DNA from: Rhodanobacteraceae bacterium
Lineage (GTDB): Bacteria > Pseudomonadota > Gammaproteobacteria > Xanthomonadales > SZUA-5
DNA length: 64,000 nucleotides
Reading direction: 5' to 3'
NCBI GenBank assembly: GCA_016713135.1
Contig: JADJPR010000012.1
Location: 12,601 to 76,600, forward strand
The notes below the pieces were generated by a model. It made no database searches. It saw only the letters and a list, made by a program, of their open reading frames with translations, and was not told where the DNA came from. Both the position numbers and the translations under genes were made by a program. This document shows, in pieces, positions 7,914 through 59,601 of the stretch; the stretch's first letter is position 1, and every line of letters begins with the position of its first letter.

Positions 7914-7934
7914 GTCGTGCCGGGCGGCAAGCAA

Positions 7935-8146: not shown

Positions 8147-8170
8147 CCACGCCGGCAAAGCCGGCGTTGC

Positions 8171-27987: not shown

Positions 27988-30279
<2,292 letters not shown>

Positions 30280-30794: not shown

Positions 30795-30823
30795 TTTACA
30801 AAATATTCACCAACGGTTAGAAC
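30795..30823 (+). promoter_or_regulatory. Candidate sigma-70 promoter of the TonB-dependent receptor gene
   Basis: TTTACA, 17 nt, TAGAAC, in a locally AT-richer patch about 125 nt upstream of the ATG at 30949. Confidence 0.35.
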
Positions 30824-30948
30824 GCGTGTCACTCGCAAACCAAACGCATCAGAGGTTCCCTGGAGAAGCCGCGAGAGACCTCGTCCGGCCAGACCGGAGC
30901 GCGCCCGGGCGCGCAGATTCTTCCCCTAGACCTACCCTGGAGCAGCAA

Positions 30949-35816: not shown

Positions 35817-35918
35817 CGGCGTCTCGCTTGGTTTGTCCAGGATGCGGCGGCATGCTAGCGGAACCGGCGCCCGCGCCCAGCCCGCTGGCCCGCGCCGCCG
35901 GGCACTCCCGAGATCCCG

Positions 35919-39568: not shown

Positions 39569-39801
39569 GGCGAACTCCGCGGGTGTCACTGACGGTTACG
39601 TAAGCTATTCCCGCGGAGGGTCGCCTGAATGCGGCGCAATTCGAATCACCCATGGTATTTCCGACGGACGGTATGTCCGCATCGTCTGCGCACGTCGTTT
39701 TGATTCAGGTGAGCCCTGAAGCCCTCACACCGCCGGCGGAGATCAGCCTAGAGGCAACCCGCCGGCTCCTTCGGGACCTTCCCTCCAGACTGGATTCCCC
39801 G

Positions 39802-43613: not shown

Positions 43614-44348
43614 CTAGGCGAACCCGGCGACGACGCTGCAGAAGCGCGCACCGGCGGCGCTGCGCCCGGGGGCATAGTCGTAATCGACACGCAGCACCGG
43701 CCCGAGGTGGGTGCGCACCTGCGCCACCAGCCGCTCCGGGGTGTGCGGGCGGACGACCTCGCGGGTGACCAGCGTGCGCCCGCCGAAAGCGCCGCGCATG
43801 CGATAGCGCCGCTCGATTCGGTGACAGCCGTCGGCCAGCCGCATGACCCGCTTGTGCCGCACCAGCCATTGGTCGTTCACGCGCCGCGCATAGTCGCGCA
43901 GCCAGCCGCTGCCGGCGAGGCGCGGCTGCGGGATGAAGGCGTCGACGACGACGCACGCGCCCTGCCGCAAGGTGGCGCGCAGGCCGGTTGCCAGCGCCGA
44001 CCAGTCATCCTCGTCCAGCAGATAGGTCGCCAGCGAATACGGCAGCAGCGCCAGCGCGAACTCACCCCGCAGCGCGAGCCGGCGGATGTCCATCCGCAGC
44101 AGCGACGCCGCCGGCCCGCAGCGCAGCCGCGCCTGTTGCAGCATCGCGCCGGAACGATCCACGCCCACCGCGTCCACCCCGGCCGCCAGCAGCGCCGCGA
44201 GCACGCGCCCGGTGCCACAGCCGAGTTCCAGCACCGGCCCGTCTGCGGCGCGTGCCAGCGCGCGGTACCAGCCGATGTCGTCGAAGGCCATGCTCGCGCC
44301 CATGTCGGCGTCGTAGATCGACGCGATGGCGTCGTACGCGGCGCTCAT
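43614..44348 (-). CDS. Class I SAM-dependent methyltransferase (244 aa)
   Basis: Motif I VLELGCGTGRV. The start ATG overlaps the upstream stop (ATGA, 44345-44348). Confidence 0.85.
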   Translation of the reverse strand: MSAAYDAIASIYDADMGASMAFDDIGWYRALARAADGPVLELGCGTGRVLAALLAAGVDAVGVDRSGAMLQQARLRCGPAASLLRMDIRRLALRGEFALALLPYSLATYLLDEDDWSALATGLRATLRQGACVVVDAFIPQPRLAGSGWLRDYARRVNDQWLVRHKRVMRLADGCHRIERRYRMRGAFGGRTLVTREVVRPHTPERLVAQVRTHLGPVLRVDYDYAPGRSAAGARFCSVVAGFA

Positions 44349-46363
44349 CGGCGCCGCGCCAAGCGGGTCAGCAGGTCCACCCATGGTTGCACGCGCAGGG
44401 TCCACGACCACGGCGCGATGGCCGCGCGCGCCTGCGCCTCGGCGCGATGGCGTCGGTCTGGGTCGGACAAAAGCGCGAGGATTGCATCGGACATGCCCGC
44501 GACATCGGCGACGCGCACGAGCCCCGACGTATCCAGCGCCTCGAAGCCGCGCGCGCCGCTGCGGGTGCTGACCACCGTGCGGCCGTGCGCCAGCGCCTCG
44601 GCAAGTTTCAGTGCGGAGCCCTCGATCTCGCCCTGCGGATTCAGCGCCAGCACCGCGGCGGCGTACTCCGGGGCCGGGTCGACATGGCCATCGACCAGTT
44701 CCACGCCCGCAGGTAGCGGCGCCGAGCCCCAGCGCGAGGCGCCGCCGTCCCCGGCCAGCACGCGCACCCGCAGCGACGGGTCGTGCGCACGCAGCGCCGG
44801 CCACGCCAGCGCCAGGAAGTCGCGCAGACCGTCGAGGTTCGGCCGGTAGCGCAGCGGCGCGACCAGCAGCAAGGGGCCGTCCTGCGGCGATGGCGCCGCG
44901 GCCGCGTCGGGCACGCGCACGCCGTTCTCGACGAGGATTTCGTGCGGATGCTGCCAGTAGCCCAGGTCCACCGCGGTGGTCAGCACCAGCGCGACGACAT
45001 GGGTCAGCGCGGCGCCGACGCGCGCCTGCGCGGCGGGTGGCAGCGCGCGCCCGGCATCGTGCAGCGTCCACACCACCGGGACATCGCAGGCGAGGCCCTC
45101 GATCAAGCCGACGCACTCGACGTGCTCGAAGCACACCACATCCGGCCGCGCCGCCGCAATCAGGCGCTTCAGCTCCGCCCGCAGGCGCGGGTGCGCGTGC
45201 GCATCCCAGCGCGCGAGCACCTCATCGCCGACGTCGGGCCGTCCGCCGACCGGGTGGATCGCGCGGAAACACGGGTCGTCGGCGGTCGCCGCCTGCGGCT
45301 GCGCGCTGGCCTCGTCGTGCAGCAGGATCCAGTCGATGGCATCGGCGCTGGCGCGCGCCAGTTCGACGATCCGCCGCGCACCGCCATGGCTGGGCGGCAG
45401 CACCGCGAACGGCGACACCAGCAGCACGCGCGGGCGCCCGGTGCGCCAGCGCTGCGGGTGCGGATGGCGCTGGTGGTGCAGGTGATCGAGGCAGGCGGCC
45501 GCCGCGCTGGCGCGCAGCCGCTGGCGCGCGGCCCGATGTTCGCGATCCAGCGCCCGCCAGAGCGCGCCGAGGCGATCGAGCTTGCCACCGTGCCAGCGCG
45601 GCGCGCCAAACAGATCGCCATAGCGCCAGCGCAGGTGCGCCAGGTTGCGCTGCACCACCCGCTCGACGGTGCGCGGCGCCACATAGCGGCCGATGGTCGC
45701 CCGATGCGCATGCAGCGCACGCGAGGCCGGGCAGTACAGCACGCTCAGGCCCTCGGCCCAGGCCTGCAAGCCCCAGTCGGCGTCCTCGAAATAGAACGGC
45801 GCATAGGCGCGGCTGCGCGCCAGGTAGCGCTTGAGCGGCGCGGCCTGGAACAGCGAGGAGCCGCCGCCGGCGTAAAGGTGTCCGCGCGCCTGCAGGTCGA
45901 TCGGTTCGCGGTCGTGCAGTTCCAGCTGGCCGTCGGGCGCGCGCGCCGGCACGGTCCAGCCGGTTTCCTCACGCCGCCGGCTGCGGTCGACAAACTCGAT
46001 CTGGCTGGCGATCGCGAACACGTCCGCGGCGCGCCAGGGCAGCAATTCGGCCAGCGCATCGGGTGCCAGGCGCATGTCGCTGTTGAGCAGGTACAGCCAG
46101 GGCTCGGCGCTGGCAGCAACCAGCCGTTCGATCGCGCCGTGGTAGCCGAGCGCGCGCGGATGGAACTGCCACTCCACGTCGGCGTGCCCGGCCTGCAGCT
46201 CGCAGTAGTCGGCGGCCGACGCGCCGTTGACCAGCACGCGCACGCGGTGCGGAGTGTCGATGCGCTCGCGCGCGGCGCGCAGCGCGGCCAGTGTGAGCGC
46301 CAGCTCGTCGGGCCGCCCGCGCTCCGGGATCAGCACCGCGAAGGGCGCGTCCGCGCTCACCAC
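44345..46363 (-). CDS. Fused glycosyltransferase: GT2-like N-half plus GT4-like C-half (672 aa)
   Basis: GTG start overlaps the radical-SAM stop. N-half motifs FAVLIPERGRPDEL...LYLLNSDMRL...FEDADWG. C-half motif VLLVSPFAVLPPSHGGARRI...EGSALKLAEALAHGRTVVST (EX7E-type). Confidence 0.8.
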   Translation of the reverse strand: MVSADAPFAVLIPERGRPDELALTLAALRAARERIDTPHRVRVLVNGASAADYCELQAGHADVEWQFHPRALGYHGAIERLVAASAEPWLYLLNSDMRLAPDALAELLPWRAADVFAIASQIEFVDRSRRREETGWTVPARAPDGQLELHDREPIDLQARGHLYAGGGSSLFQAAPLKRYLARSRAYAPFYFEDADWGLQAWAEGLSVLYCPASRALHAHRATIGRYVAPRTVERVVQRNLAHLRWRYGDLFGAPRWHGGKLDRLGALWRALDREHRAARQRLRASAAAACLDHLHHQRHPHPQRWRTGRPRVLLVSPFAVLPPSHGGARRIVELARASADAIDWILLHDEASAQPQAATADDPCFRAIHPVGGRPDVGDEVLARWDAHAHPRLRAELKRLIAAARPDVVCFEHVECVGLIEGLACDVPVVWTLHDAGRALPPAAQARVGAALTHVVALVLTTAVDLGYWQHPHEILVENGVRVPDAAAAPSPQDGPLLLVAPLRYRPNLDGLRDFLALAWPALRAHDPSLRVRVLAGDGGASRWGSAPLPAGVELVDGHVDPAPEYAAAVLALNPQGEIEGSALKLAEALAHGRTVVSTRSGARGFEALDTSGLVRVADVAGMSDAILALLSDPDRRHRAEAQARAAIAPWSWTLRVQPWVDLLTRLARRR

Positions 46364-47778
46364 ACCAGCTCCGCGGCGATCAGCGCGAAGCCGAGCTCGC
46401 GCACATCGCTGCCGGCGCCGAGTGCCTGCGGACTGCGCGCGCCGGGACAATCGATCTCGACCACGATCTGGTCGCCGCGGGCGGCCGGCAGGGGCAGGCG
46501 CAAATCGATGCTCTCCGGCCCGGCGACGGCCTGCTGGTGCAGCGTGTGCCCATCCACGCGAACTCTGAAAGTGGCCGAAGGCGGCGCGTGCGCGAGCAGT
46601 CCGCGCAGGCGCAGGTGGCGGCGGAAACGCGGTCGCGGCAGCACCAGCGCGGCGCCGCTGCCGCACCAGCGCGCGCCGCTGCCGTCGTCCGCATGCCAGC
46701 CGCGCAGCAGTTGTGCCGCCGGCGGGCGCGCGCCCTCGATGCGGGGCTGCGGGCGGATCGGGCGGTAGGCGGTCTTGTAGACGCAATCGCGGCAGGCCGC
46801 GGCCAGTCCGGCCAGGTGCGCCGCGCGAAAGTCGCGATAGGCCTTGCCATGCCAGATCTCGCGCAGGCTGGCGTGCTTCAGATCGCCCAGCGCGGTCTTC
46901 TCGGTGACCTCGCAGGCGACCACCCGGCCGTCGGCGAGGACGTGCACGCTGTCGAAGGGACTCTGGTCGCAATCGCCGATGCGCGCGCCGGGCGGCAATG
47001 GCCACGGCCAGGGTTGCGGGTGTGCCGCCAGCGACACGTCCGGCTGCAGTTCGAAGGAGGACAGCTGGATCGCCAGCTCCGGCGCCGCCGCGCGCGCGGC
47101 GGCGACCGCGCGCGCCAGGCGTGCGCTGAAGCCGGGATCGAGCTGGCCATCGGCGGTGTGCTCGCTGGCCGGTCCCAGCGGCAGAGGATCGCGCCCGATC
47201 AAGGGGTGCACCGCCAGCACCGGGATCGCGTGCGCCGCGGCGAAGGTGGCGACCGCGGGCAGCTCGTCGAGGTTGCGATCCATCGCGACGAAGGCCAGGT
47301 CCAGTGCGAACGGCCACGGCGCACGCTGGCGCCAGTCCAGTAGCTGGCGGATGCGTGCGTGCATCGCTTCCAGCGAGCCGAAGCGGTAGATCGCCTCGAA
47401 GCGCGCGGCGTCCAGGGTGTGCAGCGACACCGTCAGGCGCCCGAGGCCCGCCTCCAGAGCCGCCTGCAGCCGGTCGGGTTTGAGCGAGGCCAGCGCGCTC
47501 ACCAGTTCAACCTCGGCGCCGGTGCCGGCGGCGAGCGCAACGGCCTCGGCCAGCCGCGGATAGTGGCCGGACTCGCCGGCGTAGTTCAGGCGCCGCATGC
47601 GCGGCAGGTCGAGCTCGCCGATCACGCGCCGGTACAGCTCGAAATCCAGATGCTCGCCGGCACCGCGCAGGCTCGCGCGGGTGCAGAACACGCAGTCGAA
47701 GGGACAGCGCGAGGTCAGTTCGATCCACAGCACGCGTGGCATCGCGAGCGTGCGCGCGGCGAGCAGGGCGTCGCTCAT
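46357..47778 (-). CDS. Radical SAM protein with a C-terminal auxiliary-cluster (twitch/SPASM-like) region and an extra ~110-aa tail
   Basis: CPFDCVFC (CX3CX2C). CDQSPFDSVHVLADGRVVAC (CX13GX4C). SLREIW...CRDC. The start ATG overlaps the upstream stop (ATGA, 47775-47778). Confidence 0.85.
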   Translation of the reverse strand: MSDALLAARTLAMPRVLWIELTSRCPFDCVFCTRASLRGAGEHLDFELYRRVIGELDLPRMRRLNYAGESGHYPRLAEAVALAAGTGAEVELVSALASLKPDRLQAALEAGLGRLTVSLHTLDAARFEAIYRFGSLEAMHARIRQLLDWRQRAPWPFALDLAFVAMDRNLDELPAVATFAAAHAIPVLAVHPLIGRDPLPLGPASEHTADGQLDPGFSARLARAVAAARAAAPELAIQLSSFELQPDVSLAAHPQPWPWPLPPGARIGDCDQSPFDSVHVLADGRVVACEVTEKTALGDLKHASLREIWHGKAYRDFRAAHLAGLAAACRDCVYKTAYRPIRPQPRIEGARPPAAQLLRGWHADDGSGARWCGSGAALVLPRPRFRRHLRLRGLLAHAPPSATFRVRVDGHTLHQQAVAGPESIDLRLPLPAARGDQIVVEIDCPGARSPQALGAGSDVRELGFALIAAELVW

Positions 47779-48749
47779 ACCAGGTCCTCCGCGGCCAGCG
47801 CCTCGCCGCACCACAGGCTGAGCGCCTGCTCGGCAAACAACGCCGCCCAGGTCGGGCGGGCATCGGCAAAGGGCACGAAGGGCAGGCGGCCGCGCACGTC
47901 CACCCGCGCCGCCAGCTCGGCGGCCAGATTCACCCAGTCGGCTTTACGCGGGAAACCCAGCAGCAGCGCGGCACGCAGTGCCTGCGCCAGCACATCGCTG
48001 CGGCGGGCGCCGCCGTCCACCGATTCGCAAAGCCGCGCGACGCCGCCGTGCGCCCTGAGCAGGGCGTCCAGCGCCTGCCGCGCGGGCTCGCGCTGGCCGA
48101 GCAGCAGCAGGCCCTCGATGGCATAGAGCTGCGGGTGCGCCTCGCGATGCGGCTGCGCCAGGGTCTGCGCGGCCAGCTGCGGCACTGCCGCGGCGGCCGC
48201 TTGCGCCACCCCACCGGTCCCGTGGCGCAAGTGCGCACAGGCCTTGAGCAGGAAGGGCCCGAGTTGCCCGGACCAGCGCGGCGGCAGCGCGCCGCGGCCG
48301 GCGATCAGGCGACCGTCCTCGAGGTAGCGCCCGAGCGCCTCCCAGACGGAATCGGCGAGTGCCAGCGCGCGCTGCGATTGGCGCGCCAGGCCGAAGCGGC
48401 GCAGCCCCAGCCACAGCATCGCGTGATCGTAGAGGTAGTCGGCGCTGGCGTAGGCTGGATCGCTCGCCGCGGCGCCGACGCGGGTGGGCCAGGCGCCGCC
48501 GCCCAGGCGCGCGCCAGCGAGCCAGTCCAGCACCGAATCGGCGTGTCCGGCAGCGACGTCCGCCCGCGCGCTCGCCCACTGCAGCCAGTAGCCGGCGATC
48601 TCGGGATAGGCGTACAGGGCGCTGCCATCGGCCGCGTGCGCGCCGACCACACCGCGCGGCCAGGCCGCTCCGCCGCGCGCGCCCAGCTCCGCGCGCAGCC
48701 GAGCCAGCGCGTCCTCGACAGCGCTGCCGCGCGCCGCGACCGCGTTCAC
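47775..48749 (-). CDS. Hypothetical protein (324 aa), helix-rich, possibly an alpha/alpha toroid
   Basis: GTG start overlaps the epimerase stop (GTGA, 48746-48749). Good GC3 bias. Recurrent aromatic-Leu helix patterns (YPEIAGYWLQW, YLYDHAMLWLGL, QLYAIEGLLLLG). No motif I can name. Confidence 0.6.
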   Translation of the reverse strand: MNAVAARGSAVEDALARLRAELGARGGAAWPRGVVGAHAADGSALYAYPEIAGYWLQWASARADVAAGHADSVLDWLAGARLGGGAWPTRVGAAASDPAYASADYLYDHAMLWLGLRRFGLARQSQRALALADSVWEALGRYLEDGRLIAGRGALPPRWSGQLGPFLLKACAHLRHGTGGVAQAAAAAVPQLAAQTLAQPHREAHPQLYAIEGLLLLGQREPARQALDALLRAHGGVARLCESVDGGARRSDVLAQALRAALLLGFPRKADWVNLAAELAARVDVRGRLPFVPFADARPTWAALFAEQALSLWCGEALAAEDLV

Positions 48750-49921
48750 GCGCGTGCCCCCAGCCGTGCTTGCTGCTGCAGCGCAAGCCAGCGCGCGATG
48801 GCCTCGGCCGCGCGCAGGCCGGCGTGGCCATCGCCGTAGGGGCTGTCGGCGGCCAGCGGCCACGCCGGCGGCCAATGCGCGACGCCGAGCGCGCGCTCGA
48901 TCTGCGCATCGAGCTCGCCTGCGGCGAGCGGTTCGATCTGGCGCGCATGGCCGCTCTCGAGCGCTTCCATGCGTTCGCTGCGACGGCGGTAGACCAGCAG
49001 CGGCACGCCCAGGTAAGGCAGTTCCTCGGCGGCGCCGCCGGAATCGCTGAGTACCCCGCGTGCATTGCGCGCCAGCGCCAGCCAGCGGCTGCGCTCCAGC
49101 GCGGGCAGGCGCGCGATGCCGCTGTCCTCGCCCAGAGCCAGCGACCAGCGCCGCTGCCACCACGCGTTGGGATGCGCCGCCATGCCGATGCGCCAGCCGC
49201 CGCGCGCCAGCGCCCGCAGGCCCAACGCCAGGCGGTCGAGCGCGCGGCCGGCGTTCTCGCGCCGGTGCACGTCGACCAGCAGGTCGCAGCGCGGCAGGGT
49301 GCTCGCCAGCGCCGGCTGGCGCAGGCCATCCACCGCAGTGCTGCCGATCTGTTCGATGGATTGGGCCGGGACGCCCTCGGCGAGCAGCTGCGCCGCCGCG
49401 CGCGCGCTCGGCGCCAGGTGCAGGTCGGCGATGCGCGCGATCGCCCGGCGGTAGGGTTCCTCCGGAAACGGCGAGCGCAGGTCGCCGCTGCGCAGCCCGG
49501 CCTCCAGGTGCACCAGCGGCAGGCCGGCCGCGCGCGCTGCCTGGGCGCCGGCGTGCGCGCTGGCGGTGTCGCCCTGGACCACCACAGCGCGGGGCCGGCA
49601 GCGATGCAGGAACACGGCCAGCGCCATCTGCAGCGCGCGGTCGAGTTCGCCTCGACGCAGCGGATGCGCCGGCGGCGGCAGCCGCTGCCACGGCCAGTGC
49701 GCGGCGTCGGCGGGCACCTCGGGCTGCTGTCCGGTCCAGCACCAGCGCAAGCTGCCGCGCCAGGCCTGCGCCAACGGCGCCAGCTTCAGTGCTTCCGGCC
49801 GGGTGCCGGCGATCAACAGCAAGTCGCAGGGCGGAGCGATCGACACGGCGGGCGACGCACAGGGAGGAGGAATCGTCGACACTGCGTGAAAGCCCGAGTT
49901 CCGGCCCGTGTCCAAGGTCAC
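48746..49921 (-). CDS. UDP-N-acetylglucosamine 2-epimerase-like protein
   Basis: LLLIAGTRPEALKLAPL, VVVQGDTASA, HLEAGLRSGD...PFPEE. The start is uncertain (GTG at 49921 or 49846). Confidence 0.78.
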   Translation of the reverse strand: MTLDTGRNSGFHAVSTIPPPCASPAVSIAPPCDLLLIAGTRPEALKLAPLAQAWRGSLRWCWTGQQPEVPADAAHWPWQRLPPPAHPLRRGELDRALQMALAVFLHRCRPRAVVVQGDTASAHAGAQAARAAGLPLVHLEAGLRSGDLRSPFPEEPYRRAIARIADLHLAPSARAAAQLLAEGVPAQSIEQIGSTAVDGLRQPALASTLPRCDLLVDVHRRENAGRALDRLALGLRALARGGWRIGMAAHPNAWWQRRWSLALGEDSGIARLPALERSRWLALARNARGVLSDSGGAAEELPYLGVPLLVYRRRSERMEALESGHARQIEPLAAGELDAQIERALGVAHWPPAWPLAADSPYGDGHAGLRAAEAIARWLALQQQARLGARA

Positions 49922-49937
49922 GGGGCAGAAGGGCCGT

Positions 49938-50198
49938 TCAGGCGGTCGGATCGGGCAGCGGAACCCGTTCGGCCGGCGGGAACTGCACGTGGTAGCCGAT
50001 GCCGGCGATGTTCTCCAGCACCCGCCGCGCGTCTTCCCGCGCGAGCCTGCGCTCAGGCGTCAACTCGAAACGCAGCGCTTCGCTCAAGGGACCGAGCGCC
50101 TGCTGCAGCGGCGGCGGCAGCTTCGCCAGCGCCGCGGCATCCGCCACGTAGACATAGGTGTCCGGGCGGCGCGAGCTGCGGTAAACGATGCAGTGCAT
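49938..50198 (-). CDS. YcgL-domain protein (86 aa)
   Basis: MHCIVYRSSRRPDTYVYV...GYHVQFPP matches the YcgL pattern. It is in frame within ORF 49938..50627. Confidence 0.75.
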   Translation of the reverse strand: MHCIVYRSSRRPDTYVYVADAAALAKLPPPLQQALGPLSEALRFELTPERRLAREDARRVLENIAGIGYHVQFPPAERVPLPDPTA

Positions 50199-50271: not shown

Positions 50272-51555
50272 TCAGAAGCGTACGACGCCGGAGACGGAGT
50301 AGGTATCCACCAGGTCCGAGAGATCGGCCGCGAGGTCCAGCTGGAACTTCTGGAAGGACCAGCCCAGGCCCACGCTGTAGTGCATCTCGTCGTCACCCTC
50401 CGGATACAGCACCGCCGCAAGGCAGGCGTTGAAGGTGTCCGGATTGCAGTTCGCCGGTGCCTGGCCATCGAAGGCCAGGCGGTGGTCCGGGTCGCGCCAG
50501 ATGCCGCCACGCAGGAACATCGGCGTGGCCATTTCCAGGAAGGCGTACTCCACACCGAGGTGGATCTCGGTGCCGTCGTCGATGCTGAGCGGGGTGTCCG
50601 GGTTGGCGAAGATCGACTCGATGCCATCCGACAAGCGGCTGTATTCGATGCGGTTCACGTCGAGCGTGAACAGCAGCGCATCGCTCGGGCGATAGGTCAG
50701 CCCCAGGCTGAACACGTTCGGCACTGAGAATTCAGGTTCCAGATCCAGCCGCAAGGTGGTCCCCGTCACCACGTTCGAGGCGTCGTACTCGAAGTCACCG
50801 CCGGTGCGGTAGGCCAGGCCCAGGTTCCATTGCGGATTGATGTTCCACAACGCGCCCAGGGTGTAGACGATGTCGTTGTCGCTGCCATCCTGGCGCTGTT
50901 GGTTGAATGGCGTGTTCTCGTCGCCGAAGAAGCGCGCGGTGTAGGAGGAAATCGAGAAATCCGAATAGGCCACGCTCAGGCCCAGCGAAAAGGTGTCGCT
51001 GACCTTGTAGCCCACCGAGGCGCCGAGGTTCTCCACGCTGTAATCCAGCTGGGTGGATTTGCGCAGCGCCTGGTCGGTGCCATTGCCGTTGGCATCCACG
51101 AATTCGATCGCAGCGCCGTCGAAATCCGTTTCCAGGTCGCCCACGCGGTGATAGTAGAGCGCGAAAGTGGCGCGTTCGGTCGGGATCACCCACGAGGCGA
51201 ACACCGGGCGCGTCACCGTGTCGGATGCGCGTCCGGTGCCCACATTGCTGGTGTCGAAGGGGTTGTTGCTGACCGTTCCCCCGGACGGGAACGGCGTGTC
51301 GAACCCGGTATGGCGCACTTCCAGTCCGAATTCCTGGGTGCGCAGGATGGTCAACCCGGCGGGATTGGCGTAGGTCGCCGTGGCATCGTCGGCCAGGCCC
51401 GTGAAGGCGCCGCCCAGCGCCAGCGAGCGCGCGCCAGGATTCGAGAAGTTGAACTGCACACCGGTGTTCACTTCGTCATCGGTGATCGCGAATGCCAGCG
51501 CGGGCGCCAGGGTCAGCGCAGCCAGCAGTGCACGGGCAAGATGGGTATGGCGCAT
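50272..51555 (-). CDS. Outer-membrane beta-barrel, FadL/OmpP1/TodX-like
   Basis: Signal peptide MRHTHLARALLAALTLAPALAFA. NPGARSLALGGAFTGLADDATATYANPAGL. Alternating beta-strand pattern. Terminal ...GVVRF. Confidence 0.65.
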   Translation of the reverse strand: MRHTHLARALLAALTLAPALAFAITDDEVNTGVQFNFSNPGARSLALGGAFTGLADDATATYANPAGLTILRTQEFGLEVRHTGFDTPFPSGGTVSNNPFDTSNVGTGRASDTVTRPVFASWVIPTERATFALYYHRVGDLETDFDGAAIEFVDANGNGTDQALRKSTQLDYSVENLGASVGYKVSDTFSLGLSVAYSDFSISSYTARFFGDENTPFNQQRQDGSDNDIVYTLGALWNINPQWNLGLAYRTGGDFEYDASNVVTGTTLRLDLEPEFSVPNVFSLGLTYRPSDALLFTLDVNRIEYSRLSDGIESIFANPDTPLSIDDGTEIHLGVEYAFLEMATPMFLRGGIWRDPDHRLAFDGQAPANCNPDTFNACLAAVLYPEGDDEMHYSVGLGWSFQKFQLDLAADLSDLVDTYSVSGVVRF

Positions 51556-51769
51556 GGGATTCCCTCGTTTGGTCCGGACTTGCCGGTGTGATCGTCGCGG
51601 CAGTCTGCGAGCGCTTGCCGGTGGCGTCAATCGTCACATTCATTGGCATTGGCCTCGATGGCCGACCTGCGGGGCGTGTCCCGCCATCCGCCGGAAACTC
51701 GCCCCGGCTGTCATTGCCGGCGCGTAAACTGGTATCCGCAGCACACGGCAATCCTCCACGGGAGGTTTC

Positions 51770-54700
51770 ATGCGCGGCATGCGGCAGGTGTGGACTTGGG
51801 TGTGCGGACTGGCGATGGCAGTCGCGGCGCAGGCAGGGGATCTCCGGGAGGCGGTGCCGCCCGGGCACGCCGATGCGGCGATGGAGGGCTCCCGGGTAGC
51901 CCAACGCGCGCTGCGCCCCGCGCGAACCAAGCTCTTCGGAGCGCCTCGTGGCTGCAATGGTTTCGTCTACGCGATGGTCACCGCGCCCTCGGGCCTGGTC
52001 TATCTCGGCGGCGATTTCTCGGCCTGCGAGGATGTCCTGGCGTCGAATGTCGCCGCCTACGATCCGCGCACGCGGCAGTTCCTTGCGCTCGGTTCCGGCA
52101 CCGCCAACGGGGTCAGCGCCGGGGCTTTCGGCGGGGTGTATGCGCTGGCGCTGCAGGGCAGCGATCTGATCGTCGGCGGCTCGTTCACGGCGGCTGGCGG
52201 CGCGCCAGCGGACAGTATCGCGCGCTGGAACGGCAGCGCCTGGTCGACCCTGGGCAACGGTGAGGTGCAGGGCGTCGCCGGCCTGGTCTACGACCTGGCG
52301 GTCAACGGGGCCGATCTCTACGCTGGCGGCCTGTTCAGCAGCGCCGGCGGGGTACCGGCGGCGAGCATCGCACGCTGGGATGGCAGCGCCTGGACCGCGC
52401 TCGGCGGCGGGGTCGGCGGGCGCGATGACGCCTCGGTCTATGCCTTGCAGTGGACGGACGGCGCGCTCTTCGTCGGCGGCCTTTTCACCCAGGCGGGCGG
52501 GGCGCCGGCGAGCAACATCGCGCGCTGGAGCGGGAGCGCCTGGAGCGCGCTCGGTGCGGGCACGGACGGCCCGGTGAACACGCTCGCGGCCTTCGGCAAC
52601 GAGATCTATGCCGGTGGCCAGTTCGCCAACGCTGGCGGGCAGGCCGCGAATGCGCTTGCGCGCTGGAATGGCACGGCCTGGCGGGTGGTGGGCACGGCCG
52701 CAGCGCACGGCGTCAGCGGCGGCGTGCTCCAGTTGCTGGTCTCCGGCAGCGAACTTTACGTCGCCGGCTTCTTCGTCCAGGCCGGGGACCAGCCCGCAAA
52801 CAACACGGCGCGCTGGAACGGCAGCGTCTGGGCGTCGTTGGGCAGCGGCGATGCGAATGGCACCAGCCGCACGGTGTGGGCGCTGGCGCAGGGATCGGAC
52901 GGGCTCTACGTCGGCGGCGAGTTCGACGCCGCCGGCGGCCAGCCGGCGAGCTTCATCGCCAGCTTCGACGGCAGCGGCTGGCGTGCGCCGGGCAGCGGGG
53001 TCGGCAATGGCGTGAACAATACGGTCGATGCCCTGGCGATCTCCGGCAACGATCTGTACGTCGGCGGCGCCTTTACCCAGGCGGCCGGCGCACCGGCCAA
53101 CCATGTCGCGCGCTGGAATGGCAGCGTCTGGAATTCACTCGGCAGCGGCACGGCCAACGGCACCGACGCGCGCGTGCTGGCGCTCGCGGTGCAGGGCAGC
53201 GAGCTGTATGCCGGCGGCTATTTCGGCAACGCCGGTGGCGAGCCGGCGGCGTTGATCGCGCGCTGGAACGGGAGCGCATGGTCCACCCTCGGCAGTGGCG
53301 TCGCCGGGCGCTTTCCGAGCGTGCTGGCGATCGAACCGGTCGGCAGCGATCTGTACGTCGGCGGCGAGTTCACCGTCGCTGGCGGCCAGCCCGCCAACAA
53401 GATCGCGCGCTGGAACGGCAGCAGCTGGTCGGCGCTCGGCAGCGGCGCCGCCAACGGCGTCAGCGACACCGATTTCATCCCGATCACCGCGATCAAGGCG
53501 CTCGGCAGCGACCTGATCGTGGCCGGCGATTTCACTACCGCAGGCGGCCAGCCGGCCAATCGCGTCGCGCGCTGGAACGGCAGCGCCTGGTCCGCGCTCG
53601 GCAGCGGCATGAACAACATCGTCTATGCGCTGGCGGTGATCGGCTCGGATGTCTACGCCGGCGGCGGCTTCAGCGAGGCCGGCGGCCAGCCGATCCAGGG
53701 CGTGGCGCGCTGGAATGGCAGCGCCTGGCAACCGCTGGGCACGCTGGAGCTGAACGGCGTCAACGGCACCGTGCGCGCGCTGGCCGTCAGCGGCAGCGAG
53801 CTCTACGTCGGCGGCAGTTTCACCACTGCCGGCGGGCAACCGGCCAACGGCCTGGCACGCTGGGACGGCAGCGCATGGCACGGGCTGGCGGTGGACGCCC
53901 CGCCACAGGTGGTGCGCGCGATGGTGGTCGATCGCGGCTCGCTGTACGCGGGCGGCGCCGGCCTGAGCCAGACGCCGCTGCCGGACCTGCAGAGCCGATC
54001 CCTGGCGGGCAGCGCGGCCGACGGCGCCAGCAGCGAGCCCGTGACCTCGCGCAGCGGCGGCAGCCTGGCCTTCGCCTCGCTCGCGTCGAACCTGGTCGCG
54101 GGAGATGGCAACGGGCGCAGCGACATCTTCCTGCGTGATCCGGCGAGTGGCGCCACGCTGCGCGCCAGCGCGCTGGCCGAAGCGATCAACGGCGGAGCGG
54201 CCGAGTCCTTCTCCGAGCCGGCGCTGTCGGCCGACGGTGCGCGACTGGCCTATCGCGGTTCGTCCGGCCAGCTGTACGCGAACATCGGCGGCAGTGCGCG
54301 GGTGCTCAGCCGCAGCGCCGCGGGCGTGCCCGGCAATGGCGCCTCGGGCAGGCCAATGCTGCCGGGCAACGGCGCGCTGGCCTTCTTCGAGTCGCAGGCG
54401 AGCAATCTGCTGGCAACCGCCGATGGCAATGGCGCGGTCGCCGACATCTTCGTGACCGACCTGGCGACCGGCGCGGTCACCCTGGTCTCGCGCGGGCCCG
54501 CGGGCGAGCCAGCCGACGGCCCCAGCAGCGCGCCGTGGGCCTCACAGGACGGCCAGACCATCGCCTTCTCCACCCTGGCCAGCAACATCGTGCCGGGCAG
54601 CGCGGCGCAGCCGGGGCTCAAGGCGGGCACGGTGCAGCAGGCCACGATCATGCGCGGCGGTGGCTTCGGCCAGAGCCGCTTTTACGTCAGCCGCAACCTG

Positions 54701-55981
54701 GCCACTGGCGAACTGGGCAACGGGCACTCGACCAACGTGCGGGTCACGCCGGACGGCAAGTACGGCGTGTTCGAATCGCTGGCGAGCAACCTGGTGCCCG
54801 GCGACAGCAATAACGCCGCCGATGTCTTCCGCTTCGAGATTTCCGGCAACCAGCTGGTGCGCCTGGAGCGGGTGTCGACCTCGCGCTACGGCGAGCAGGC
54901 CAACGCCGCCAGCCGCAATCCGACGATCTGCGACGACGGCCAGTTCGTCGGCTTCGAGACCGACGCCAGCAACCTGGTCGAACTGGACCGCAATGGCACC
55001 AGCGACATCCTGGTCAAGTGGCTGGTCACCGGCGAGGTGGTGCGCCTGTCGCGCACCGCGGACGGCAACCAGCCCAACGGTGCCAGCGGCGGCGCATCGA
55101 TCAGCGGCGACTGTTCCAGCATTGCATTCGCTTCCGCTGCCAGCAACCTGGCGCCCGGCGACGGCAACGGCGCGCCCGACGTGTTCAGCGTGGCCCTGCG
55201 CGAACGTGCCCCGACGCTGGTCAGCGGCCCGCAGGACGAGCCCGCGCTGACCGGCTTCGCGCTGCCGGCGCCGGATCCCGCCAACGCCAGTTGCCCGGCC
55301 GGCTTCTTCATCGCCGCGGTGGACGACGGTCCGGGCCAGGGATTGACCCCGGGCATCTTCGGCGTGGAACTGTTGCTGGACGCTCCGGGCACCCGCGTGC
55401 TGGCCGGTGGTCTCAATTTCGGCGGCCTGATCGATGCCGGCCAGGTCGGTTTCGCCGGGTTCAACTTTCCCAACGCGGCGACCGAGCCGCAGCGCTTGAA
55501 CCTGCGGGTTACCGGCAGCCCGGCGGATGACAGCGCGGGCAGCCTGCAGGTGCTCATCCGCATCGCGCGGCGCACGGCCAGCTCCAGCGAAACGGTACTC
55601 GAGCAGACCGCCCAGATCTCACTGGCGAGCGCATTCCAGCGCGAGATCGACCTGCCGCCAGGCTTTTACGAGGCGACCGTAGGCGCGACCAGCGGCAGCC
55701 CCGGCGGCGCACCAGAGGGGCAATTCTTCTTCGCGCTCAGCACCAGCTTCGTTGACCGTCCGGGCGGCGGCTTTCAGGGTGGCGCGGTGGTCGGCGGTTA
55801 CCACGCAACGCATCCCTTCGGCGGGGTCAGCGGATTCGCCGCGTTCTGCATCGCCACCCCGCACGCGACCAGCATCCGCGTGCTGTCTCGCCCGAGCTAC
55901 GGTCCGGCCGGCGCGCAGGACCTGCGTCTCAAGCTGCGCGACGCGCAACAACGCGAACTGGTGGTGGTGCCTGCCGGTTGA
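51770..55981 (+). CDS. Giant secreted protein 1 (1403 aa): 12-13 ARWNGSAW propeller blades, PD40-like repeats and a shared C-terminal domain
   Basis: GGGAGG Shine-Dalgarno 6 nt upstream. Signal peptide MRGMRQVWTWVCGLAMAVAAQA. Repeat and domain content is described in the findings. Confidence 0.85.
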   Translation: MRGMRQVWTWVCGLAMAVAAQAGDLREAVPPGHADAAMEGSRVAQRALRPARTKLFGAPRGCNGFVYAMVTAPSGLVYLGGDFSACEDVLASNVAAYDPRTRQFLALGSGTANGVSAGAFGGVYALALQGSDLIVGGSFTAAGGAPADSIARWNGSAWSTLGNGEVQGVAGLVYDLAVNGADLYAGGLFSSAGGVPAASIARWDGSAWTALGGGVGGRDDASVYALQWTDGALFVGGLFTQAGGAPASNIARWSGSAWSALGAGTDGPVNTLAAFGNEIYAGGQFANAGGQAANALARWNGTAWRVVGTAAAHGVSGGVLQLLVSGSELYVAGFFVQAGDQPANNTARWNGSVWASLGSGDANGTSRTVWALAQGSDGLYVGGEFDAAGGQPASFIASFDGSGWRAPGSGVGNGVNNTVDALAISGNDLYVGGAFTQAAGAPANHVARWNGSVWNSLGSGTANGTDARVLALAVQGSELYAGGYFGNAGGEPAALIARWNGSAWSTLGSGVAGRFPSVLAIEPVGSDLYVGGEFTVAGGQPANKIARWNGSSWSALGSGAANGVSDTDFIPITAIKALGSDLIVAGDFTTAGGQPANRVARWNGSAWSALGSGMNNIVYALAVIGSDVYAGGGFSEAGGQPIQGVARWNGSAWQPLGTLELNGVNGTVRALAVSGSELYVGGSFTTAGGQPANGLARWDGSAWHGLAVDAPPQVVRAMVVDRGSLYAGGAGLSQTPLPDLQSRSLAGSAADGASSEPVTSRSGGSLAFASLASNLVAGDGNGRSDIFLRDPASGATLRASALAEAINGGAAESFSEPALSADGARLAYRGSSGQLYANIGGSARVLSRSAAGVPGNGASGRPMLPGNGALAFFESQASNLLATADGNGAVADIFVTDLATGAVTLVSRGPAGEPADGPSSAPWASQDGQTIAFSTLASNIVPGSAAQPGLKAGTVQQATIMRGGGFGQSRFYVSRNLATGELGNGHSTNVRVTPDGKYGVFESLASNLVPGDSNNAADVFRFEISGNQLVRLERVSTSRYGEQANAASRNPTICDDGQFVGFETDASNLVELDRNGTSDILVKWLVTGEVVRLSRTADGNQPNGASGGASISGDCSSIAFASAASNLAPGDGNGAPDVFSVALRERAPTLVSGPQDEPALTGFALPAPDPANASCPAGFFIAAVDDGPGQGLTPGIFGVELLLDAPGTRVLAGGLNFGGLIDAGQVGFAGFNFPNAATEPQRLNLRVTGSPADDSAGSLQVLIRIARRTASSSETVLEQTAQISLASAFQREIDLPPGFYEATVGATSGSPGGAPEGQFFFALSTSFVDRPGGGFQGGAVVGGYHATHPFGGVSGFAAFCIATPHATSIRVLSRPSYGPAGAQDLRLKLRDAQQRELVVVPAG
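51962..53960 (+). repeat. In-frame tandem repeat of about 150 nt (about 50 aa), 12-13 copies, inside giant protein 1
   Basis: Consensus: GG.F..AGG.PA..IARWNGSAWS.LGSG..G.V.ALA..GSDLYVGG. Confidence 0.85.
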
Positions 55982-56190
55982 TCCAGGCATGTGATCCCGG
56001 TCGCGAATCCGCCGTGTGCAGGCGGCGTGAAGGCCCCGCAAGGCCCCGAAACAGCGTTTGTGCAAATCAAACGCCGCTGGGTGCATGCTTGCGCCACAGG
56101 GGATCGTGGGGCTGCCCGCTGGGTGCGCGGCAGTGGTCACCAAGCTGGGTCGCGCCGGCCCGACGCGAAGCACCGAGGGAGAAGCAAGCC

Positions 56191-59100
56191 ATGAACACTA
56201 TCGCCACCACCGCCTTGTGTGCCTTGATGGCACTCGCGGCAGGCAGCGCCATTGCCGGCAACCACCCGGATCCGGCGCAACTCGCGGACAGGCCCAAGGC
56301 CACCAGCGTGTTCCTGACGAATGTCACCAGCGTCGAGGACAGTTGCGGCGGCGTGCGTTACAGCGCCATCCTGAACATGTTCGGCACCAACAACGATGGC
56401 GGCGGCAACGATCTCATCTGGTTCACGATCTTCGACGACAACCAGGAGAAGTTCGCACAGTCCTTCTCCGCGCCGGTGGGCCAGTCGCGCCAGTTCCAGG
56501 TAGTCGCCGAATACCCCGGTCGAGTCGGCCAGGTCGCGCCCGGCATCGGCATCTACGTCGGTGAGACCCGTGGCGACGGCGGCCTGATCCTGATCGACCC
56601 CTTCTTCCCGACGCTCACCTCCGGCTGCACCATCGGCGGCACGCCGCCGGCGCTGGGATTCAGCCCGAGCACCGGGTCAACCATCAGCTACAACGCTGCA
56701 GGCGCTGCCAGCGCGATCGGTGTCAGCAACGCCGGCGGCGGCAGCGGCGGCGGTCCAGCCGGCACCACCACGCTGACCACCTGCACCATCACCGGCGGCG
56801 CGGCTTTCCCGACGACATCGTTCAACCCGGCGATCAGCGCCGTGGGCAGCGGAGCGCCGTCGCCGGCGAGCATCACCCTGCCCGCCTGCGTGCCGCAGGC
56901 TGCTACCGCCACCGCAAGCCTGCGCTGCCTGGAGACCCGCGGTTCCGGCGGCACGCCGGCGCAGCGCACCTGGACCCTGAGCTGCCCGGCCAGCGTCGCA
57001 GCGACGCCGCCGCGCCTGAACGCGCCCCTGGTGGAAGCGTTCGCAATCGGTGGCGGCCTGCCCAATGGCAACAGCCAGGCGCCGGTGCTGTCGCGCAACG
57101 GCGCCAGGATCGCCTACACCTCGGACGCCAGCAACATCGTCTCCGGCGATCCGAACACGCGTCCCGACATCTTCCTGCGCGATCGCGTGTTCAACACCAC
57201 CACGCGGGTCAGCCAGCTCGCCGAAGCGCTCAACCCCGGCATGCAGGAGGGCTACGACGATCCGGCGATCTCCGCCGATGGCAACACGGTGGCCTTCACC
57301 GGCACTTCCGGACAGGTCTATGCGACCGCGGGCAGCAGCGCGCGCAAGATCAGCGCCAACGCAAGCGGCAGCCTGGGCAACGCCCCCTCCGCGAATGCCT
57401 TCCCCATCAGCGATGGTTCGCTGGTGTTCTTCGACTCGCGTGCCACCAACCTGCTGAGCGGCAATGATGGCAATGGCGGCATGGACGACATCTTCGTCAA
57501 GAACCTCGGCAACGATTCGGTCACGCTGATTTCGCGCGATCCCAACGGCGGCCCGGCCGACGGCCCGAGCGCGGCCCCATCGGCCTCTGCGGATGGGCAG
57601 ACCATCGTGTTCCACACGCTGGCCACCAACATCGTCCCCGGCGGCACCACACCAACCGGTTTCAGCCAGAACTTCGATGGCGTGACGGCACCCTCGCTGC
57701 CGGCAGGATGGACTGCGCTAAACGCCACCACCGGCAACAACTTCCGCTGGCAGACCACCACCGCCTCCGCCCCACCCGCGCCGAGCGCGCCCAACTCGGT
57801 TTACGTGGATGAGGAAGGCGTGGTCTCCGACAAGATGCTCGACAGCGCCCTGCTGACCGTCGTCGGCCAGCCTGCGACCCTGTCCTTCCAGCGCCTGCAC
57901 AACCTGGAATCCAACTTCGATGGCCTGGTGCTGGAGATCTCGGTCAACGGCGGTGGCTACAGCGACGCCGTCACCGCGGGTGGCAGCTTCACCGCCGGCG
58001 GCTACAACGGCGTGATCAGCAACAGCTTCCTGAGTCCGATCGGCGGGCGCAATGCCTGGACTGGGAACACCGGTTCCTATGTGACCACCACTTACCGCCT
58101 GCCGGGCAACATCGCGAGCGGTGCCAGCGTGCGTTTCCGTTGGCGTGCCGCCACCGACACCTCGGTCGGCGGCGGTGAAGTGCATGTGGACAACATCACC
58201 TCGACCAATCTGTCGCTGCCGGGCTCGGTGGCGACCAAGCTGCCTTCCGGCGTCAAGGCCGGCACGATCCAGCAAGCGACGATGATGCGCGGCGGCGGCT
58301 TCGGCCAGAGTCGCTTCTACCTCAGCCGCAACCTCGCCAGCGGCGAGCTTGGCAACGGCGACAGCACCAACGTCAAGGTCACGCCGGACGGCCGCTGGGC
58401 CGTGTTCCAGTCGCTCGCCAGCAACCTGGTCACGGGCGATACCAACAATGTCAGCGACATCTACCGCGTCGAGATCTCGAACAACCAGGTGGTGCGGATG
58501 GACCGCGTCACCCTGACCAAGACCGGCGAGCAGCCCAACGGCAACAGCTTCCTGCCGCAGATCAGCGACGATGGCCAACTGGTGACCTTCCAGACCGAGG
58601 CCACCAACCTGGCGCCTCCGGATACCAACGGCCAGCCTGACGTGATGGTGAAGTCGATGGTCAGCGGTGACGTGCTGCGCATGTCGCAGACGACCGATGG
58701 CCAGGAGCCGAATGGGCTGACCGTGCTGCCGACGATCTCCGGCGACGGCAGCACGCTCGGGTTCTGCACGCTCGCGACCAACGTCGCCGGCGGCGACAAC
58801 AACGGCGCCGCGGATGTGTTCACCTCCGGCATCCAGAGCAGCCTGCCGCGCGACGAGCCCGGCCTGGTGCGCTTCACGCTGCCCACGCCGAACCCGCCGA
58901 ATGCAAGCTGCCCGGCAGGGTTCTTCTCCGCGGTGGTGGACGACGGTCCGGGCGCAGGCGTCACGCCGGGCACCTTCGGCGTGGAACTGCTGCTGGACGA
59001 TCCGGGAACCCGGGTCCTCGCGGGCGGCCTGAACTTCGGTGGCCTGATCGATGTGGGCCAGGTGGGCTTCGCCGCATTCAACTTCGCCAATGCGGCGAAC

Positions 59101-59601
59101 GAACCGCAGCGCCTGAACCTGTCGCTGACCGGCAGTCCATCGAGCAATGCGGCGGCGAGCTACCCGGTGCGCGTGCGCATCGCCCGGCGCACGGCGACCA
59201 CCACCGACGTGGTCTTCGACAGCACCCAGACGATCTCGCTGAGCGCGCCGTTCAACACCAGCATCGACCTGCCGCCGGGCTTCTACGAGGCCACCGTGGC
59301 GCCGACCAGCGGTGCCGCGGGTGGCGCGCCGGAGGGCCAGTTCTTCTTCGGTCTGACGACCAGCTTCATCGGCCGTCCCGGCGGTGGGTTCCAGGGCGGC
59401 GCGGTGGTTGGCGGCTACCACGCCACCCACCCCTTCGGCGGCGTCAGCGGATTTGCCGCCTTCTGCCTCGCGACGCCGCACAGCACCAGCGTTCGCGTGC
59501 TCTCGCAACCTACCTACGGTGCTGCCGGTGCTCAGGACCTGCGGCTGCGCATGCAGGATGCGCAGCAGCGCGACCTGATCGCGGTGCCGAGCAGCAACTG
59601 A
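56191..59601 (+). CDS. Giant secreted protein 2 (1136 aa): paralog of protein 1 in the PD40-like and C-terminal regions, with a jelly-roll-like insert
   Basis: Starts MNTIATTALCALMALAAGSAIA after a GAGGGAGAAG Shine-Dalgarno. It is in frame within ORF 55978..59601. Confidence 0.85.
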   Translation: MNTIATTALCALMALAAGSAIAGNHPDPAQLADRPKATSVFLTNVTSVEDSCGGVRYSAILNMFGTNNDGGGNDLIWFTIFDDNQEKFAQSFSAPVGQSRQFQVVAEYPGRVGQVAPGIGIYVGETRGDGGLILIDPFFPTLTSGCTIGGTPPALGFSPSTGSTISYNAAGAASAIGVSNAGGGSGGGPAGTTTLTTCTITGGAAFPTTSFNPAISAVGSGAPSPASITLPACVPQAATATASLRCLETRGSGGTPAQRTWTLSCPASVAATPPRLNAPLVEAFAIGGGLPNGNSQAPVLSRNGARIAYTSDASNIVSGDPNTRPDIFLRDRVFNTTTRVSQLAEALNPGMQEGYDDPAISADGNTVAFTGTSGQVYATAGSSARKISANASGSLGNAPSANAFPISDGSLVFFDSRATNLLSGNDGNGGMDDIFVKNLGNDSVTLISRDPNGGPADGPSAAPSASADGQTIVFHTLATNIVPGGTTPTGFSQNFDGVTAPSLPAGWTALNATTGNNFRWQTTTASAPPAPSAPNSVYVDEEGVVSDKMLDSALLTVVGQPATLSFQRLHNLESNFDGLVLEISVNGGGYSDAVTAGGSFTAGGYNGVISNSFLSPIGGRNAWTGNTGSYVTTTYRLPGNIASGASVRFRWRAATDTSVGGGEVHVDNITSTNLSLPGSVATKLPSGVKAGTIQQATMMRGGGFGQSRFYLSRNLASGELGNGDSTNVKVTPDGRWAVFQSLASNLVTGDTNNVSDIYRVEISNNQVVRMDRVTLTKTGEQPNGNSFLPQISDDGQLVTFQTEATNLAPPDTNGQPDVMVKSMVSGDVLRMSQTTDGQEPNGLTVLPTISGDGSTLGFCTLATNVAGGDNNGAADVFTSGIQSSLPRDEPGLVRFTLPTPNPPNASCPAGFFSAVVDDGPGAGVTPGTFGVELLLDDPGTRVLAGGLNFGGLIDVGQVGFAAFNFANAANEPQRLNLSLTGSPSSNAAASYPVRVRIARRTATTTDVVFDSTQTISLSAPFNTSIDLPPGFYEATVAPTSGAAGGAPEGQFFFGLTTSFIGRPGGGFQGGAVVGGYHATHPFGGVSGFAAFCLATPHSTSVRVLSQPTYGAAGAQDLRLRMQDAQQRDLIAVPSSN

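Follow-up and report, generated by a model that had tools for sequence, protein, structure and literature searches.

We analyzed a window of 64,000 nt (the whole stretch of DNA considered here; GC content ∼69%) from a metagenome-assembled genome (MAG) of a Rhodanobacteraceae bacterium, in which two adjacent genes encode large proteins, here termed P1 and P2, that are both named 'hypothetical protein' in the source. The P1 gene (51770–55981, + strand; MBK8068182.1) specifies 1403 aa, and the P2 gene (56191–59601, + strand; MBK8068183.1) specifies 1136 aa counted from its ATG; a 1207-aa open reading frame (ORF) beginning at TTG is a mere upstream extension of P2. Each gene is preceded by a Shine–Dalgarno sequence, GGGAGG (51760–51765, + strand) lying 4 nt before the ATG of P1 and GAGGGAG (56175–56181, + strand) 9 nt before that of P2. 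GC content at third codon positions is 0.85–0.88 in P1 and P2, and neighbouring genes are alike in this respect, so by codon-position GC both look like real genes. As read from the sequence, residues 1–22 of each protein form a signal peptide, ending AAQA/GD in P1 (51770–51835, + strand) and SAIA/GN in P2 (56191–56256, + strand). The N-termini (MRGMRQVWTWVCGLAMAVAAQA followed by GD, and MNTIATTALCALMALAAGSAIA followed by GN) look like substrates of signal peptidase I, and neither contains a lipobox. P1 ends in RELVVVPAG and P2 in RDLIAVPSSN, with no hydrophobic helix and basic tail at either C-terminus. An earlier reading of the letters alone (hereafter the sequence-only reading) had described two same-strand ORFs of 1403 and 1136 aa, each with a Shine–Dalgarno sequence and a signal peptide, and the coordinates, motifs and N-termini given here agree with it. 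It had also called the proteins giant; they are large, but the label is generous for 1.1–1.4 thousand residues.

P1 and P2 are paralogues. BLASTP aligned residues 941–1402 of P1 with 676–1134 of P2 (583 bits, 65% identity over 465 aa) and residues 738–951 of P1 with 279–492 of P2 (50% identity over 214 aa), a relationship far beyond chance. At the DNA level, the two genes are only 73% identical over 1372 nt, indicating that the duplication is old. This value, together with the lack of long identical tracts, rules out recent gene conversion.

In P1, the signal peptide is followed by propeller repeats of the DUF5122/Rax2 type, then by a PD40-like propeller and finally by a domain of ∼250 residues, common to the C-termini of P1 and P2, which we call module X. 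The N-terminal propeller region (51932–53944, + strand; aa ∼55–725) was recognized from DUF5122/Rax2 matches and from its repeats. It scores 83 bits against DUF5122 (PF17164; cut-off 27) and 76.6 bits against Rax2 (PF12768; cut-off 28.8). Twelve clear ARWNGSAW blades lie between aa 149 and 703, with a period of ∼50 aa (spacing 46–54 aa), and one or two more are degenerate; the region probably forms two 7-bladed propellers. Next comes a PD40/TolB-like propeller of ∼7 blades (53981–55219, + strand; aa ∼738–1150) with the recurring motif S.DG..VAF.S.A.NLV.GD.N...DVF, and then module X (55232–55978, + strand; aa 1155–1403), an all-beta domain with two invariant cysteines.

P2 begins differently. 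After the signal peptide, aa 23–278 (56257–57024, + strand) make up a lineage-specific region, rich in Gly, Ala and Thr, with two Cys-containing subdomains that hold 6 of the 9 cysteines of the mature protein. No family matched this region, and only 5 homologues were found in 5.8 billion clusters. The first of the subdomains also occurs alone, in a metagenomic protein of 179 aa (P0193) that ends in PAPGPGP, a hydrophobic stretch and RLRS; this end resembles an IPTL-/PEP-CTERM tail, at a score below threshold (15.1 bits; cut-off 20.5). The PD40-like propeller of P2 follows in two parts (57025–57660, aa 279–490, and 58216–58848, aa 676–886; + strand), interrupted by an insert of ∼185 aa (57661–58215, + strand; aa 491–675). 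Module X of P2 (58849–59598, + strand; aa 887–1136) is 73–74% identical to the P1 copy. Against PD40 (PF07676; Pfam cut-off 20.9 bits), P2 scores 38.8 bits and lies above the cut-off, whereas P1, at 16.3–19 bits, lies below it; the corresponding region of P1 is 50–57% identical to the above-threshold region of P2. The insert gave a local match of 66.5 bits to positions 1025–1167 of NF038111, in the C-terminal region of sortase-dependent M36 peptidases, and 21.7 bits against choice-of-anchor J (NF038128), short of the NCBIfam cut-off of 30. By its sequence, then, the insert appears related to choice-of-anchor J, without being a member by the curated cut-off.

When whole P1 and P2 were compared with the PDB by phmmer, no match was obtained, and the two proteins appear to have no characterised homologue over their whole length. 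The sequence-only reading had taken them to be exported, paralogous and mosaic, with no such homologue, which the signal peptides and the empty phmmer search bear out. It had likewise noted the shared PD40-like repeats and a shared C-terminal region, put at ∼240 aa and here extended to ∼250; the differing N-termini, with ARWNGSAW repeats in P1 (12 in our count) and a Gly/Ala/Thr-rich stretch with several cysteines in P2 (six); and the ∼185-aa insert of P2, now placed at aa 491–675. Searches with domain hidden Markov models, which it had proposed, assigned DUF5122/Rax2 to P1 and PD40 to P2 and left module X unmatched.

Module X returned only noise from Pfam (E up to 10), from NCBIfam and from sequence and profile searches of the PDB. 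Structure prediction, also proposed earlier, was more informative. An AlphaFold2 model made with 21 homologues is all-beta, with 17 strands, a predicted local distance difference test score (pLDDT) of 88 and a predicted template-modelling score (pTM) of 0.82. Foldseek found no close fold in the PDB, only weak jelly-roll or sandwich matches (template-modelling score, TM, ≤0.30), which include a carbohydrate-binding module (CBM), MAM and the C-terminal domain of C. perfringens enterotoxin. We also considered a membrane barrel or autotransporter for module X, and rejected it because the predicted domain is all-beta and soluble, contains the invariant Cys pair and has its matches among sandwich folds. 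Conserved columns consist mostly of Gly, Pro and aromatic residues, plus the two invariant cysteines, and no catalytic-looking residue set was found among them. The invariant motifs are GGLNFGG, RPGGGFQGGAVVGGYH and GFAAFC, and the domain boundary carries a conserved DEP motif.

This domain extends well beyond the locus. A profile search of 1.84 billion representative proteins detected module X in 252 clusters, 116 of them below E = 1e-30, all from metagenomes or from MAGs of Lysobacterales and Wenzhouxiangellaceae. When one genome was scanned for each of 185,579 species, the module was located at 11 or more genome loci, those listed all being in MAGs of Rhodanobacteraceae, Lysobacterales, unclassified Gammaproteobacteria and Wenzhouxiangellaceae. 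Of the 120 listed proteins of at least 290 aa, 78 carry module X at the C-terminus and 28 at the N-terminus, where it closely follows the signal peptide; in the other 14 it is internal. Its partners, counted in 55 members, include PPC (9), Peptidase_S8 (7), Flg_new_2 (6), PD40 (5), RCC1, Sortilin/BNR and PA (3 each), and FGE-sulfatase and Trypsin_2 (2 each); M35, Kelch, FG-GAP, PKD and P-domain also occur, making at least 15 kinds in all. Small proteins composed of a signal peptide and module X alone exist as well (e.g. P0047 and P0049, 319 aa). By a crude test, 90 of 111 full-length members have signal-like N-termini, and none of the 42 members in which module X is N-terminal or internal shows a hydrophobic C-terminal anchor. 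Thus the shared C-terminal region, which the sequence-only reading had noted in P1 and P2, is not particular to this pair but a mobile domain. Its spread of positions and diverse partners indicate a shuffled accessory module rather than a positional sorting signal.

Module X is also the best-conserved part of P2 orthologues, with identities of 82–95%, compared with 72–94% for the propeller, 60–83% for the N-terminal region and 61–82% for the product of the neighbouring gene, a FadL-type channel described below. Intact orthologues of the same lengths (1135–1145 aa and 1400 aa) are present in at least five independent assemblies, and P1 and P2 are conserved and under purifying selection. In a tree of module X, the copies of close relatives cluster by orthologue type, while those of distant genomes cluster by genome and not by passenger domain. 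The conservation and the tree pattern together suggest that module X carries a constrained function common to the family.

Genes with module X form variable tandem arrays at several loci (L001, L005, L008, L009 and L022–L024); in Rhodanobacteraceae, such arrays are neighbours of a FadL-type channel gene. In or beside three such arrays, in different families, lies a gene for a ∼286-aa S-adenosylmethionine (SAM) methyltransferase (L001:12935–13792, L005:8552–9409 and L008:3265–3987, all on the + strand). The enzyme, apparently cytoplasmic, carries a CxxC...CxxC zinc ribbon at its N-terminus; the three copies share 43–61% identity, and none is present in the window. Another recurrent product is a 744-aa protein with N-terminal module X (aa ∼85–320), encoded on the + strand at L021:10503–12737, L022:16538–18772 and L023:16459–18693. 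Its module X is 42–46% identical to other copies, and its gene lies a few kb from a FadL-type gene, on the flank opposite to the array.

Divergent from P1, at 50272–51555 on the − strand, is the gene for an outer-membrane channel of the FadL/TodX family (start MRHTHLAR). Its signal ends in AFA/IT, and its C-terminus, VVRF, has the terminal Phe. The protein scores 60.6 bits against Toluene_X (cut-off 29.7), and its NPA motif (N64-P65-A66) does not vary among 40 homologues. In the PDB, the nearest sequences are those of CymD, TodX, TbuX and a P. aeruginosa FadL homologue. An AlphaFold2 model (pLDDT 88.7) has N-terminal, hatch-like helices followed by barrel strands, and its best structural matches are E. 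coli FadL (TM 0.65) along with TodX, TbuX and CymD. The match to PorV from a T9SS (type IX secretion system) complex (8gl6_F) is weaker (TM 0.42), and the score against PorP_SprF (PF11751), 21.5 bits, falls just under the cut-off of 22.3. Sequence and model both point to a classical FadL/TodX channel, not to a PorV/PorP-like one. Directly downstream is a small ycgL-like gene (49938–50198, − strand), and the FadL–ycgL pair is kept in L018, L019 and L020.

To place this arrangement, homologues of the barrel were located in other assemblies. The FadL-type gene adjoins module-X genes in the window and at eight other loci (L001, L014, L018, L019, L021, L022, L023 and L024), that is, in all relatives with an informative flank except L020, where the FadL–ycgL pair (FadL identity 67%) stands without giant genes. 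The layout of the window recurs in L019 (FadL identity 82%), and L018 (89%) has two P1-like genes, in fragmented form. In L001, L014, L021, L022 and L023 (60–64%), a P2 orthologue is divergent from the barrel. It is followed in L001, L022 and L023 by further module-X genes for PKD/PPC, trypsin-PPC and BNR proteins; in L014, an FHA-phosphatase gene separates the barrel from the P2-like gene, inside which the contig ends. In L024 (52–57%), two FadL genes stand in tandem downstream of a P1-like gene and another module-X gene, the four sharing one strand. Three more distant barrels, in L025, L026 and L027 (41–48%), have no module X beside them. The other flank of the barrel is less constant. It is occupied by the ycgL–epimerase operon in the window, L018 and L019, and by genes for a Ser/Thr kinase and a 460-aa protein in L001, L021–L024 and, less directly, L014. 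That flank and the gene orientation change while adjacency to the barrel persists, which goes beyond trivial synteny, though the syntenic lineages may all be of one family. We regard the FadL-type gene as a candidate functional neighbour of P1 and P2. The earlier statement that the pair has no recognisable partner secretion or anchoring genes needs correction, in that it leaves this gene out of account.

The association has clear bounds. Ten of the 11 listed module-X genome loci have no FadL-like gene within 10 kb, showing that the barrel is no general requirement for module X, and on this count FadL was rejected as a universal partner. Several further genes recur around the barrel. In L001, L014 and L021–L024, they form a conserved set that encodes a ∼790-aa Ser/Thr kinase, a protein of 460 aa whose N-terminus holds a signal or anchor, FadL and a PD40 propeller protein, and in Tahibacter amnicola (L027, CP104694.1) the cluster contains FadL, a PD40 protein without module X, a 281-aa protein and a kinase. 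A gene for an FHA-SpoIIE (PP2C) phosphatase lies between FadL and the giant genes at L014:691–1818 and L018:3952–4947 (both − strand; 63% mutual identity), which hints at possible Ser/Thr phospho-signalling around the cluster. The window itself encodes a Ser/Thr protein kinase fused to an alpha/beta-hydrolase domain (763 aa; 27988–30279, − strand), a paralogue and not an orthologue of the cluster kinase of relatives, with 41% identity in the kinase domain only.

Co-directional with the FadL-type gene is a glycosylation-type operon (43614–50198, − strand), which reads ycgL, UDP-GlcNAc 2-epimerase, a 322-aa unknown protein, a radical-SAM/SPASM enzyme, a fused GT2-GT1 glycosyltransferase, a methyltransferase and then an EamA transporter. 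The mix of radical SAM and glycosyltransferase functions is unusual. The layout is kept in L018 and L019, and L015, a fragment from the same species, shows the FadL–epimerase junction. The operon is absent from L001, L014 and L020–L024, and we rejected it as a partner beyond the genus. The divergent position relative to this operon, which the sequence-only reading had stressed, holds in the closest relatives (L015, L018 and L019), while elsewhere the Ser/Thr-kinase pair takes its place. The conservation survey that the same reading had called for thus gave a split result: FadL adjacency recurs, but linkage to the operon at 43.6–49.9 kb is confined to the genus.

How P1 and P2 might leave the cell is not evident from their surroundings. 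Among the ∼40 window genes scanned, which comprise housekeeping genes, efflux pumps, a TonB-dependent receptor and similar, we found no autotransporter, two-partner secretion (TpsB/POTRA), type II secretion or sortase genes. P1 and P2 contain no barrel translocator or two-partner secretion Pfam domain, and no TpsB was found among the scanned genes, which speaks against type V secretion. Sec-type signals and the lack of RTX domains speak against type I secretion, and the nearest ABC/HlyD genes are MacB-type and 35 kb off. The MacB-type ABC system (13.1–18.5 kb) and a resistance-nodulation-division (RND) pump (20.7–26.7 kb) provide no route for proteins with Sec signals. NCBIfam yielded no PEP-CTERM, GlyGly-CTERM or MYXO-CTERM match in P1 or P2, and neither T9SS C-terminal domain (CTD) model (type A, TIGR04183; type B, TIGR04131) matched P1, P2 or module X. 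The lack of autotransporter, two-partner, type I, sortase and PEP-CTERM signs reported before is hence upheld for P1, P2 and the scanned genes.

We propose that P1 and P2 are Sec-exported, non-enzymatic multi-propeller proteins of a lineage-restricted secretome family defined by module X, with binding or retention as the most likely role; we take the chances of this being right as about even. In this scheme, the proteins would fold in the periplasm after cleavage by signal peptidase I, and the two invariant cysteines of module X would probably form a disulfide. Crossing of the outer membrane would use a general route encoded elsewhere, most plausibly type II secretion, which is usual in this order. 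Once outside, the propellers would bind ligands, and module X would supply the function common to the family, most likely non-covalent attachment to a shared target. That target could be the producer's own surface or a common polymeric substrate, as with PPC, PKD and CBM-type accessory modules. Like these beta-sandwich modules and the P-domain, module X is all-beta, modular and mostly terminal; its fusion partners include subtilases, trypsin-like proteases, metalloproteases and binding domains, and PPC, PKD or P-domains are often present in the same polypeptide. Unlike them, it has its own invariant motifs, a Cys pair and a restricted taxonomic range; it shows no sequence match to them and, at ∼250 aa, is two to three times larger. 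P1 and P2 likewise resemble TolB/PD40 and DUF5122/Rax2 propeller proteins, P1 scoring above the DUF5122/Rax2 cut-offs and P2 above that of PD40. These families describe folds, not functions, and no characterised protein among them combines two propeller types with module X. A further likeness is to tripartite sorting signals: the P2 insert matches the choice-of-anchor J region of rhombosortase- or myxosortase-dependent M36 peptidases, and cargo of type II secretion can stay on the surface through such signals (PMC6219818, PMC13393428). Unlike PEP-CTERM, GlyGly-CTERM and MYXO-CTERM proteins, P1 and P2 have no C-terminal helix with basic tail, and no sortase-type gene is present among the window genes scanned. 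Some points weigh against our proposal. A freely acting binding module does not by itself explain the recurrent FadL adjacency; module X is strongly conserved compared with the remainder of the protein, as would also be the case if dedicated machinery recognized it; and no gsp/xps type II secretion genes lie in the 64-kb window.

The FadL adjacency might mean that module X docks P1 and P2 onto the FadL-family barrel, either for surface anchoring or for the last step of export. There is a precedent. In the T9SS, PorV and PorP-like proteins, which belong to the FadL family and form 14-stranded barrels, bind the CTD and anchor cargo, and sprF adjoins sprB (PMC9143113). Here too, large, presumed surface proteins with a conserved C-terminal domain are encoded beside a FadL-family barrel, as for the type-B CTD pair SprB–SprF. 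Adjacency holds in the window and eight loci across FadL identities of 52–89% while the other flank changes, orientation varies too (in L024, the giant genes and both FadL genes are co-directional), and module X is the most conserved part of P2. The weak PorP_SprF match of the barrel (21.5 bits against a cut-off of 22.3) would also fit. Yet the barrel is far closer to the transporters FadL and TodX than to PorV, on grounds of Toluene_X score (60.6 bits), NPA motif, hatch-like helices and structural match (TM 0.65 compared with 0.42). Module X is about three times larger than a T9SS CTD (∼80–100 aa), in roughly a third of the listed proteins (42 of 120) it lies internally or at the N-terminus, no T9SS CTD model matches it or P1 and P2, and the host is a gammaproteobacterium. 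To our knowledge, T9SS is confined to the Bacteroidota lineage. Moreover, 10 of 11 listed module-X loci have no FadL-like gene within 10 kb, L020 has the FadL–ycgL pair without giant genes, and the PD40 protein of the Tahibacter amnicola FadL/PD40/kinase cluster carries no module X. If the syntenic lineages are one family, inherited gene order could account for the adjacency. We consider docking on the barrel unlikely. A broader version, in which module X and the barrel would be an unrecognised cargo-anchoring or export pair of Lysobacterales, functionally analogous to the type-B CTD and PorP/SprF pairing but found outside the Bacteroidota, and module X a new large folded sorting or retention domain marking a whole secretome, seems to us slightly less probable still.

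The same synteny could instead reflect substrate capture, with P1 and P2 as binders, either extracellular or at the surface, collecting hydrophobic or particulate substrates, such as lipids and long-chain fatty acids in sludge, and passing them to FadL. Beta-propellers are common ligand-binding scaffolds, and nothing characteristic of a transport-competent FadL or TodX is missing from the barrel. Like the FadL, TodX, TbuX and CymD channels, it combines a Toluene_X match with the NPA motif, a terminal Phe and the fold of E. coli FadL, although FadL genes are not known to lie recurrently beside arrays of genes for large secreted propeller proteins and proteases. A dedicated lipid shuttle is a poor fit to arrays that also hold proteases and BNR/PKD proteins, or to a partner spectrum dominated by proteases, and domain scans detected no lipid-binding domain in P1 or P2; we accordingly give substrate capture a small chance. 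That same abundance of proteases suits a different idea, in which module X would be an intramolecular chaperone that helps folding or secretion, comparable to the PPC domain or P-domain of secreted proteases, removed after export and with no role in the mature protein. Its frequent co-occurrence with subtilases, trypsin-like proteases, PPC and P-domains, its mostly terminal position and the DEP motif at the domain boundary are all consistent with a cleavable helper. But many carriers are not proteases (PD40, Rax2, RCC1, Kelch, BNR and FGE proteins), 14 listed proteins have the module internally, and P0047 and P0049 consist of a signal peptide and module X alone, which makes the helper idea unlikely. 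Finally, P1 and P2 could be decaying paralogues or artefacts of MAG assembly, non-functional or unexpressed. One P1-like gene (L018:5173–9198, − strand), from the relative that is closest without being identical, is indeed split into several calls, and module X of P0041 is frameshifted, by assembly error or decay. Intact orthologues of the same length in at least five independent assemblies, region-specific conservation and codon-position GC typical of real genes make such decay very improbable for P1 and P2.

We therefore return to an exported binding or retention protein as the preferred reading of P1 and P2, and to the locus as one instance of a wider, undescribed secreted-protein domain family; the FadL link is suggestive and unproven. 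The earlier description of the pair as likely effectors or structural components of an undescribed surface system stays a hypothesis, given a barrel of classical FadL/TodX type and a module X that is not strictly C-terminal. The locus is best seen as a lead for protein-family curation and not as a demonstrated new surface system. Module X is well defined, with a confidently predicted fold, yet current libraries contain no description of it. A large part of the secretome predicted for uncultured Lysobacterales and Wenzhouxiangellaceae, proteases and propeller proteins included, carries this label, and these bacteria abound in activated sludge and saline sediments. With the family defined, hundreds of 'hypothetical' proteins would be better annotated, and there would be a handle on how these bacteria keep or deliver extracellular enzymes; a search of the literature on Wenzhouxiangella proteases yielded nothing relevant. 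Were module X and the barrel physically coupled, FadL-fold barrels would act as cargo receptors beyond type IX secretion. Without such coupling, the locus would be an ordinary pair of secreted binding proteins.

A few other features of the window deserve mention. Rfam and tRNA scans found nothing in it. The presence of mnmE/trmE and yidC at 6555–9874 (− strand) probably places the window close to the region of the chromosomal replication origin. A TonB-dependent receptor gene (30757–33789) lies just upstream of a pair of tetratricopeptide repeat (TPR) genes at 33762–37199, in which the gene for a 916-aa TPR-sulfotransferase protein (− strand) and that for a 427-aa TPR-Asp/Asn beta-hydroxylase protein (+ strand) overlap or abut. 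Lastly, a 726-aa exported-type PD40 propeller protein is encoded at 37409–39589 (− strand); it matches the middle domain of hydrazine synthase alpha and is unrelated to module X.

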